Shown piece after piece: positions 45,385 through 45,596 of a stretch of 64,000 bases of DNA; position 1 is the first letter of the stretch; every line of letters starts with the position of its first letter. The translations under genes and the position numbers were made by a program. The notes below the pieces were generated by a model. It was not told the DNA's origin, did not search any database, and saw only the letters and a list, made by a program, of their open reading frames with translations. The DNA is from Escherichia coli (GTDB lineage Bacteria > Pseudomonadota > Gammaproteobacteria > Enterobacterales > Enterobacteriaceae). The stretch lies in assembly GCF_003334385.1 (NCBI RefSeq), contig NZ_QOWN01000004.1; one strand, 5' to 3'.

Positions 45385-45430
45385 ACAATAGCTCTCTTTT
45401 TTTGAATATTGTTTTCTAAGTGACAATTAG

Positions 45431-45474
45431 CTTGCGACGTGCCGCAAGAAAGATCAACCATCTGGTTGGTTGAT
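45431..45474. promoter_or_regulatory. two adjacent palindromes (cttgcg-N6-cgcaag; atcaacca-N6-tggttgat) in the divergent promoter region, candidate TetR operators
   Basis: inverted repeats read in sequence between the SDR start and the TetR start. Confidence 0.45.
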
Positions 45475-45560
45475 ATGCGATAGTGATCACAGGACATTTG
45501 ATAACTTGATGAAAGTACAAGTTTTTATCCTTTTTACTGGAGCTTCTAATTAATCGGGTT

Positions 45561-45574
45561 AAGATAGTTATCTT
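45561..45574. promoter_or_regulatory. palindrome aagata-gt-tatctt immediately upstream of the TetR-family gene, candidate autoregulatory operator
   Basis: 6-2-6 inverted repeat read in sequence 23 bp before the ATG. Confidence 0.4.
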
Positions 45575-45596
45575 GAAGAGGTCGTGGGGAAGCGTT

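Follow-up and report, generated by a model that had tools for sequence, protein, structure and literature searches.

Which of several palindromes lying between a TetR-family gene and a divergent operon serves as the operator, and which promoter would it control? The question is raised by a segment of a non-K-12 Escherichia coli chromosome that spans rplI, ytfB, fklB and cycA. In this segment (hereafter the window, meaning the whole 64-kb stretch of DNA that was analysed, to which all positions refer), a 212-bp gap at 45385-45596 divides a minus-strand operon from a plus-strand TetR-family gene. An earlier, sequence-only reading had seen three palindromes in this gap and had taken all of them for regulator binding sites that control both the operon and the regulator gene from back-to-back promoters. 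Its bounds for the gap were right, the SDR start codon being the complement of 45382-45384 and the TetR ATG lying at 45597, and the three inverted repeats are indeed present in the sequence at the coordinates it gave.

The SDR operon (36461-45384, minus strand) is the predicted target of the regulator. It comprises eight genes. The one next to the gap encodes the short-chain dehydrogenase (SDR, 44593-45384); the others specify a TIM-barrel protein that is xylose-isomerase-like, an enoyl-CoA hydratase, a CoA transferase in fused form, an FAD oxidoreductase of 693 aa, and the small, large and binding subunits of a TRAP transporter. This enzyme set suggests the uptake of an organic acid and its processing as a CoA thioester. 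PDB sequence searches with the TIM-barrel and FAD proteins returned uncharacterised relatives or none. The transporter is exchangeable: the three-gene TRAP system of Escherichia (36461-39329 in the window) is also found in K. spallanzanii, and outside these an MFS protein substitutes for it, in Salmonella, Lelliottia, Leminorella and distant contigs (loci L056-L060 and L062). In three distant contigs, a flavodoxin gene stands beside the MFS gene.

The TetR/AcrR-family gene (45597-46244, plus strand) is, by Pfam and RefSeq annotation, a full-length ytfA. Its product carries an N-terminal helix-turn-helix of the TetR type (TetR_N, PF00440, residues 19-61, E = 3e-14) followed by an all-helical C-terminal ligand and dimerisation domain (TetR_C_29, PF17938, residues 83-201, E = 4.4e-30). 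NCBIfam holds no equivalog for YtfA, all curated models scoring far under their cutoffs, and the nearest solved structure in a PDB sequence search is 3npi, an uncharacterised TetR-family protein (E = 3.6e-19). The gene shares its last 17 nt (46228-46244) with the convergent ytfB, the two overlapping at their 3′ ends.

The complete locus is present in 3131-3134 of 5426 complete E. coli genomes (approximately 58%), and is also carried by Salmonella, Citrobacter, Klebsiella and relatives. The full locus is missing from 2295 of the 5426. In K-12-type genomes, yjfZ takes the place of the entire operon and its control region, together with the 5′ portion of tetR (locus L007, strain DSM 498, 1936-3403), and a C-terminal remnant of the regulator is retained as the ytfA pseudogene. 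Naturally altered regulators occur as well. In E. coli KFu021, an IS4-like element, ISVsa5, lies inside tetR (L003:4565-5773), and frameshifted TetR variants are found in other genomes (proteins P0063 and P0067). Literature searches for ytfA, for the operon and for the gene combination found no characterisation; the sole mention was a survey in which ytfA is listed, uncharacterised, as a TetR-family gene variable among E. coli strains (PMC6790063).

Palindrome 1 reads CTTGCG-N6-CGCAAG (45431-45448), palindrome 2, as first described, ATCAACCA-N6-TGGTTGAT (45453-45474), and palindrome 3 AAGATA-gt-TATCTT (45561-45574). Palindrome 2 holds in addition an overlapping inner repeat, CAACCA-tc-TGGTTG (45455-45468). 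When repeats with 6-nt arms and loops of at most 8 nt are counted, the 212 bp contain three distinct ones, against 0.39 expected from dinucleotide-preserving shuffles (P = 0.003), and just 0.56% of the 212-nt windows taken along the 64 kb contain three. The presence in the gap of a repeat with 8-nt arms has a P of 0.023. Because a single 6-nt palindrome is expected in one third of shuffles, and because the region was picked after a scan of the 64 kb, the palindrome count is by itself weak evidence.

Conservation separates the three repeats. Seven E. coli alleles of the gap were aligned (alignment A1), the most divergent locus being 89.5% identical to the query region. Palindrome 2 alone survives in all seven; a single base of it varies, TCTGGT against TCTAGT, and this base belongs to the spacer. 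In palindrome 1, other E. coli lineages have GGATAA or AGGTAA in place of the right arm CGCAAG, which is likewise replaced in other genera, and palindrome 3 (AAGATAGTTATCTT) is changed to ATGATAGTCACCAC or ATGATAGCCATCAC in other E. coli lineages. By exact-word BLAST, the palindrome 1 allele was found in 1301, and the palindrome 3 allele in 1540, of the approximately 3134 E. coli genomes having the locus; the segment made of palindrome 2 and the CRP-type site next to it (see below) was found in 3134 genomes, one copy in each. Beyond a single group of Escherichia alleles, neither palindrome 1 nor palindrome 3 is present. By this comparison, palindromes 1 and 3 are taken to be allele-specific coincidences, by-products of one E. 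coli allele.

The comparison across genera took in E. whittamii, E. albertii, Klebsiella spallanzanii, Citrobacter, Salmonella, Lelliottia, Leminorella and Entomohabitans, as well as five more distant contigs, mostly metagenomic, whose TetR proteins are 57-84% identical. In all enterobacterial loci collected, the enzyme genes are syntenic with tetR. The sequence GATCAACCA...GTTGGTT is present in all 17 loci, 74-89 nt from the SDR start codon, so that the core of palindrome 2 is kept with TetR proteins down to 57% identity, while the flanks diverge. When 11 non-redundant loci are aligned without gaps, the mean information content is 1.44 bits per column over the 22-mer, versus approximately 0.5-0.6 in its flanks.

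These alignments also bear on the register of the site. The invariant columns of alignment A4, 45452-45460 and 45465-45471, are symmetric about 45461.5 and not about 45463.5, and the outer GAT of the right arm varies in other genera (GGT, GGA, TAG, AAG or AAA). Both this symmetry and the layout of the family consensus presented below indicate that the conserved register is 8-N2-8, and not the 8-N6-8 first described. The operator predicted from conservation and from a weight matrix is thus ATCAACCA-tc-TGGTTGgt, at 45453-45470 (centre 45461.5). The following TGAT (45471-45474) forms, with 45467-45470, a second right half-site shifted by 4 nt, which gives the 8-N6-8 palindrome 45453-45474. Two matches to AACCA-N6-TGGTT with one mismatch, at 38856-38871 and 38994-39009, were rejected as further sites, the N2 register being the conserved one and neither having a family matrix score; both fall within the TRAP small-permease gene, separated by 138 bp, probably by chance. 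In one metagenomic locus with a TetR 57% identical (L061:4245-4260), a second copy of the predicted operator (CCAACCATTCGGTTGGTT) is found on the downstream side of the predicted promoter, 43 nt away from the SDR start, which gives this lineage two predicted operators on the operon side.

In Enterobacterales the predicted operator is never seen apart from tetR and the operon. Its link to the protein rests on distant homologues, and assumes that these keep the same DNA specificity. A scan of the genome collection yielded 18 alphaproteobacterial homologues with 34-42% identity (Belnapia, Sneathiella, Ferrovibrio, Tistrella, Oceanibaculum and others), all of which have the same 11-residue recognition-helix sequence as YtfA. 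In the loci examined, the SDR/CoA operon was absent beside all 18 of them. The four loci with nameable neighbours have an amidase gene just downstream of tetR, plus ABC-transporter genes in Sneathiella. All 18 carry CAA[AC]-N6-GTTG within 130 nt upstream of the regulator's own start codon, against a background of 0.107 per kb, and all 18 carry a further copy of ATCAACCA-nn-TGGTTGAT, near-perfect and in many cases perfect, shortly after the end of the regulator gene. The 18-bp motif thus stands on both sides of the gene, at about -60 to -18 and +670 to +1126 from the TetR start (loci L013-L032). As it is found beside distant homologues that lack the SDR operon, the motif follows the protein, and the YtfA subfamily appears to keep its DNA code while its target genes differ.

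A weight matrix was built from 23 unique alphaproteobacterial sites alone (consensus ATCAACCAATTGGTTGAT, maximum 28.4 bits). Its best match in the entire 64-kb window is 45453-45470, which scores 24.6 of the 28.4 bits; the runner-up, at 16.3 bits, lies inside an unrelated ORF. Within the gap, no site other than 45453 and 45457 scores above zero, and palindromes 1 and 3 fall below it. This match, together with the alphaproteobacterial co-occurrence, is the strongest argument for palindrome 2 alone as the candidate operator. A dyad-symmetric site that is conserved with the regulator and lies near its gene is found in 17/17 enterobacterial and 18/18 alphaproteobacterial loci.

A CRP-type site that had gone unnoticed in the sequence-only reading, TGCGA-tagtga-TCACA (45476-45491; 22-mer 45473-45494, centre 45483.5), begins one base right of the 22-bp palindrome and five bases from the 18-bp operator. 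In the window it has 9 of the 10 core bases of TGTGA-N6-TCACA. Its half-sites are conserved and its spacer varies, across genera as well as within E. coli (TAGTGA, TGGCGA or GAGTGA in the latter). The site is found in all genera compared: it is a perfect TGTGA-N6-TCACA in Leminorella (TGTGAgttgaaTCACA) and, as read by eye, cGTGA-N6-TCACg at the same place in Entomohabitans. Its distance from the operator is constant, 19-20 bp centre to centre when the operator is centred in the 8-N6-8 register. The 64 kb contain three CRP-type sites with at most one mismatch. A CRP-like site with one mismatch, TGTGATGAACTTCAAA (34715-34730), lies upstream of an rpsF-side ORF at 34910.

A consensus sigma-70 promoter scan of 45300-45700 gave no match, and the back-to-back promoters of the earlier reading were not, in that sense, an observation. 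Given this null scan and a poor match at the -10, placement of the operon promoter rests on conservation and geometry. The putative -35, TTGATC (45452-45457, minus strand), lies inside the left operator arm. It is present in 15 of the 17 loci, the other two having TTGATA and TTGTTC, and G45452 is invariant though it is outside the operator palindrome. Seventeen nucleotides away stands the putative -10, CAAGCT (45429-45434, minus strand), which elsewhere is CATCTT, CATTTT, CATCGT or TAAGTT and matches TATAAT at 2-3 of 6 positions. The -35/-10 gap is exactly 17 nt in 17/17 loci, with a variable sequence. From the ribosome-binding-site region to the operator, no column is invariant but those of the A at position 2 (-11) and the T at position 6 (-7) of the -10 (A48 and T52 of A4). 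Weak core elements would fit a dependence on an activator, and would explain the null result of the consensus scan.

From this geometry, transcription of the SDR operon would start at 45421-45424 (minus strand), with the CRP site centred at about -61.5 and the operator at about -39.5. The CRP centre is at -61.5 or -60.5 from the predicted start in 16 of the 17 loci, namely those where our script placed the site. Two other positions for the operon -10 were rejected. TAATTG/TATAAT at 45424-45429 would put CRP at -66.5, on the wrong face of the helix, and would require a 23-nt spacer; with 45442-45447, CRP would lie at -48.5, and such a -10 is not kept in the present allele. Palindrome 1 sits in the fast-evolving 17-nt spacer of the predicted operon promoter and the start of its -10 (about -9 to -26), and is not an operator by the comparisons above.

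Palindrome 2 alone is the predicted operator of the adjacent TetR-family protein. The earlier expectation of a palindromic operator for the divergent regulator, overlapping a promoter, is borne out by this repeat, which is conserved and carries the motif of the regulator family; as binding sites of the regulator, palindromes 1 and 3, which are unconserved and score below zero, did not hold up.

On the other side of the gap, we infer that tetR has its own promoter of the extended -10 type, with a start near 45572. The putative -10, TAAGAT (45560-45565, plus strand), reads TATGAT in most loci, or TATAGT or TATAAT, and would place the start at about 45570-45575. Its positions 1, 2 and 6 (T, A, T) are invariant in A4 (T179, A180 and T184), and the hexamer stands 33-44 nt before the ATG, at 36-37 nt in 11/17 loci. 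Two bases upstream is a near-invariant G (G45558 in the window), which makes a partial extended -10; the full TGnTATAGT or TGTTATAAT is found in four distant loci. The allele-specific palindrome 3 overlaps this -10 and the start site, and its conservation is limited to the TAnnnT part.

The operator is centred approximately 110 bp upstream of the predicted tetR start, the tetR -10 being some 100 bp from the operator. In the gap, searched with the weight matrix, no operator lies over the regulator's own promoter, as it would in dual control of the tetO type. In Entomohabitans, an insertion of approximately 215 bp parts the operator-CRP module from the tetR promoter and leaves the distance of the module to the SDR gene unchanged, which argues for assigning the module to the operon promoter. 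The alphaproteobacterial loci differ in that a site lies directly ahead of the regulator gene. In the enterobacterial arrangement, tetR is probably not autoregulated by occlusion. The claim that the palindromic sites govern both the operon and the regulator gene is accordingly not supported, since the operator overlaps the predicted operon promoter only.

The Entomohabitans insertion (Entomohabitans teleogrylli, L012:6700-6950) is G+C-rich and could be a repeat or a mobile element; the tetR-proximal sequence of locus L065 is similar. Between the CRP site and the tetR promoter lies another conserved block, TTGATAAC...TG (45498-45511), which is TTAATAAC in other genera. In A4, its T121 is near-invariant and its A122, T129 and G130 are invariant, and it stands at about -60 to -75 from the predicted tetR start. 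FNR (TTGAT-N4-ATCAA), ArcA and IHF were considered for the conserved blocks, and no convincing match was seen by eye.

Taking these results together, we consider it likely that the gap combines a single composite control module, which serves the operon, with a distinct promoter from which the regulator gene is read, and that the operon is repressed by TetR and activated by CRP. A dimer of full-length YtfA would bind the 18-bp dyad ATCAACCA-tc-TGGTTGgt (45453-45470), and, because this operator contains the putative operon -35 TTGATC, the bound repressor would block RNA polymerase. Once the repressor is gone, cAMP-CRP at TGCGA-N6-TCACA (45476-45491, about -61.5) would activate the weak promoter. 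Release of the repressor would presumably be brought about by the transported substrate or by a CoA-thioester intermediate. Transcription of the regulator gene would depend on a promoter of the extended -10 type (TAAGAT, 45560-45565) that lies roughly 100 bp away from the operator. The motifs, their conservation and their co-occurrence with the regulator family are seen in the sequences; from these we predict binding by the regulator, the two transcription starts, the sign of the regulation and the nature of the inducer.

The architecture, a local TetR-family repressor combined with the global activator CRP, is ordinary. Its value lies in giving a regulator and an eight-gene operon, both uncharacterised, a precise predicted operator, ATCAACCA-nn-TGGTTGAT, and a map of their promoters, and such a map is a route to the inducer and hence to the substrate of the pathway. 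If the model is true, strains whose tetR is disrupted by an insertion sequence or frameshifted should express the operon constitutively.

The variant of this model that survives best concerns the number of dimers. The doubled right half-site (GTTG-GTTGAT) is conserved in the enterobacterial loci, its GTTGGTT being invariant in Enterobacterales, and the same doubling, GTTGGTTGAT, recurs in the Belnapia loci, so that a second binding register is conceivable. Palindrome 2 could then bind two TetR dimers in overlapping registers, in the manner of QacR, and the repressor would reach the CRP site and block activation directly. Indeed, the shifted register (45457) scores 15.4 bits with the weight matrix and overlaps the CRP 22-mer by 2 bp. 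However, the majority of the sites of the regulator family are plain 18-mers, and four distant loci do not keep the outer GAT; on balance we think two dimers unlikely. A more far-reaching version can be formulated, in which the two overlapping registers form a composite operator where two dimers collide with CRP, adding anti-activation to occlusion of the -35, and in which one DNA code, ATCAACCA-nn-TGGTTGAT, has been rewired to unrelated pathways from alpha- to gammaproteobacteria and gates an undescribed CoA-dependent pathway in approximately 58% of E. coli. We hold this extended version to be unlikely as well, and keep to a YtfA dimer on the 18-bp dyad, next to CRP, as the preferred reading.

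Palindrome 2 might also be bound mainly by another regulator, the adjacent TetR acting elsewhere. One candidate would be RutR, a TetR-family protein of E. coli, whose box is 5′-TTGACCAnnTGGTCAA-3′ (PMC2475637). This box has the same 7-N2-7 layout as the window site (arms of 7-8 nt, spacer of 2 nt) and the same ACCAnnTGGT core, the family consensus here being ATCAACCAnnTGGTTGAT. Of the 14 positions of the RutR consensus, the site in the window agrees at 9, and sites with a 9/14 match are among the RutR targets detected by ChIP-chip (PMC2475637). However, two positions per half-site consistently differ, TCAACCA versus TTGACCA, and the motif co-occurs with YtfA-type genes in unrelated alphaproteobacterial contexts. 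YtfA itself reaches 37.8 bits against the 368-bit cutoff of TIGR03613, with the HTH region alone aligning, so that the adjacent protein is not RutR; the targets differ, and presumably the ligand. With a 9/14 match beside a protein of another kind, the site is not placed in the RutR regulon, and we find it very improbable that a regulator other than YtfA would be its main ligand.

As to the reading in which all three palindromes are TetR operators that jointly repress both divergent promoters, its appeal is easily seen. All three repeats exist, three in 212 bp is unusual, and with palindrome 3 on the predicted tetR -10 and start, and palindrome 1 on the operon spacer, a bound protein would repress. 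But palindromes 1 and 3 are unrelated in sequence, with negative matrix scores, they have been lost in E. coli lineages that keep the same genes, and they are absent in Salmonella, Klebsiella, Lelliottia, Leminorella and other genera. The unusual density of repeats does leave some room for an allele-specific role of palindromes 1 and 3. A joint action of the three as operators has, in our view, scarcely any chance of being right: the assignment was plausible-looking but mostly wrong, and the present analysis corrects it in favour of palindrome 2.

The hairpins that the palindromes could form are modest (-7.5 to -10.5 kcal/mol), and an Rfam scan gave no match, its sole result being a chance viral hit (E = 0.43). 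That palindrome 2 is a minus-strand RNA hairpin or intrinsic terminator, and not a protein site, is hardly credible: a terminator scan does flag it (8-bp stem, 6-nt loop, then CTTTCTT), and its fold has -9 kcal/mol with z = -3, but instead of a G+C-rich stem and a U-tract it has three G-C stem pairs and a poor T-tract, no upstream gene reads into it, the same motif is found on either side of the regulator gene in alphaproteobacteria, and its arms are invariant, without compensatory changes, the outer positions breaking on one side only in four loci, which a protein site explains and an RNA stem does not.

Compared with known systems, the locus shares with Tn10 TetR/tetO (tetA, tetR) a divergent TetR-family gene, a dyad operator placed in the gap over a promoter element, and an expected release by ligand. 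It differs in having one (composite) operator in place of two tetO sites, with an unrelated sequence, and in that this predicted operator is on the operon promoter only, the promoter of the regulator, some 100 bp off, having none; furthermore, a CRP site is part of the module. In class I CRP-dependent promoters, such as lac P1, CRP is centred at -61.5. The SDR operon has in common with lac P1 a TGTGA-N6-TCACA-type site about 61.5 bp upstream of the (here predicted) start, a weak core promoter, and a place ahead of a transport and catabolic operon. However, the predicted repressor site lies here between CRP and the -10, on the -35, whereas the main lac operator is at the start site.

FadR of Bacillus and Thermus, KstR2 and PsrA belong to the TetR-family repressors that sense acyl-CoA ligands and control CoA-dependent pathways. 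As in those systems, the TetR-family gene here has as neighbours those of a CoA transferase, an enoyl-CoA hydratase and dehydrogenases. YtfA matches FadR-type models and structures weakly, and some automatic annotations call it 'KstR2'; it is nevertheless far under the cutoffs of all curated models, and its closest structure remains the uncharacterised 3npi.

Finally, two GATC (Dam) sites, 45452-45455 and 45485-45488, are found 33 bp apart in the module and are conserved in nearly all aligned loci. The first is in the -35/operator arm and the second is central in the CRP site, so that occupancy by either protein could affect their methylation.
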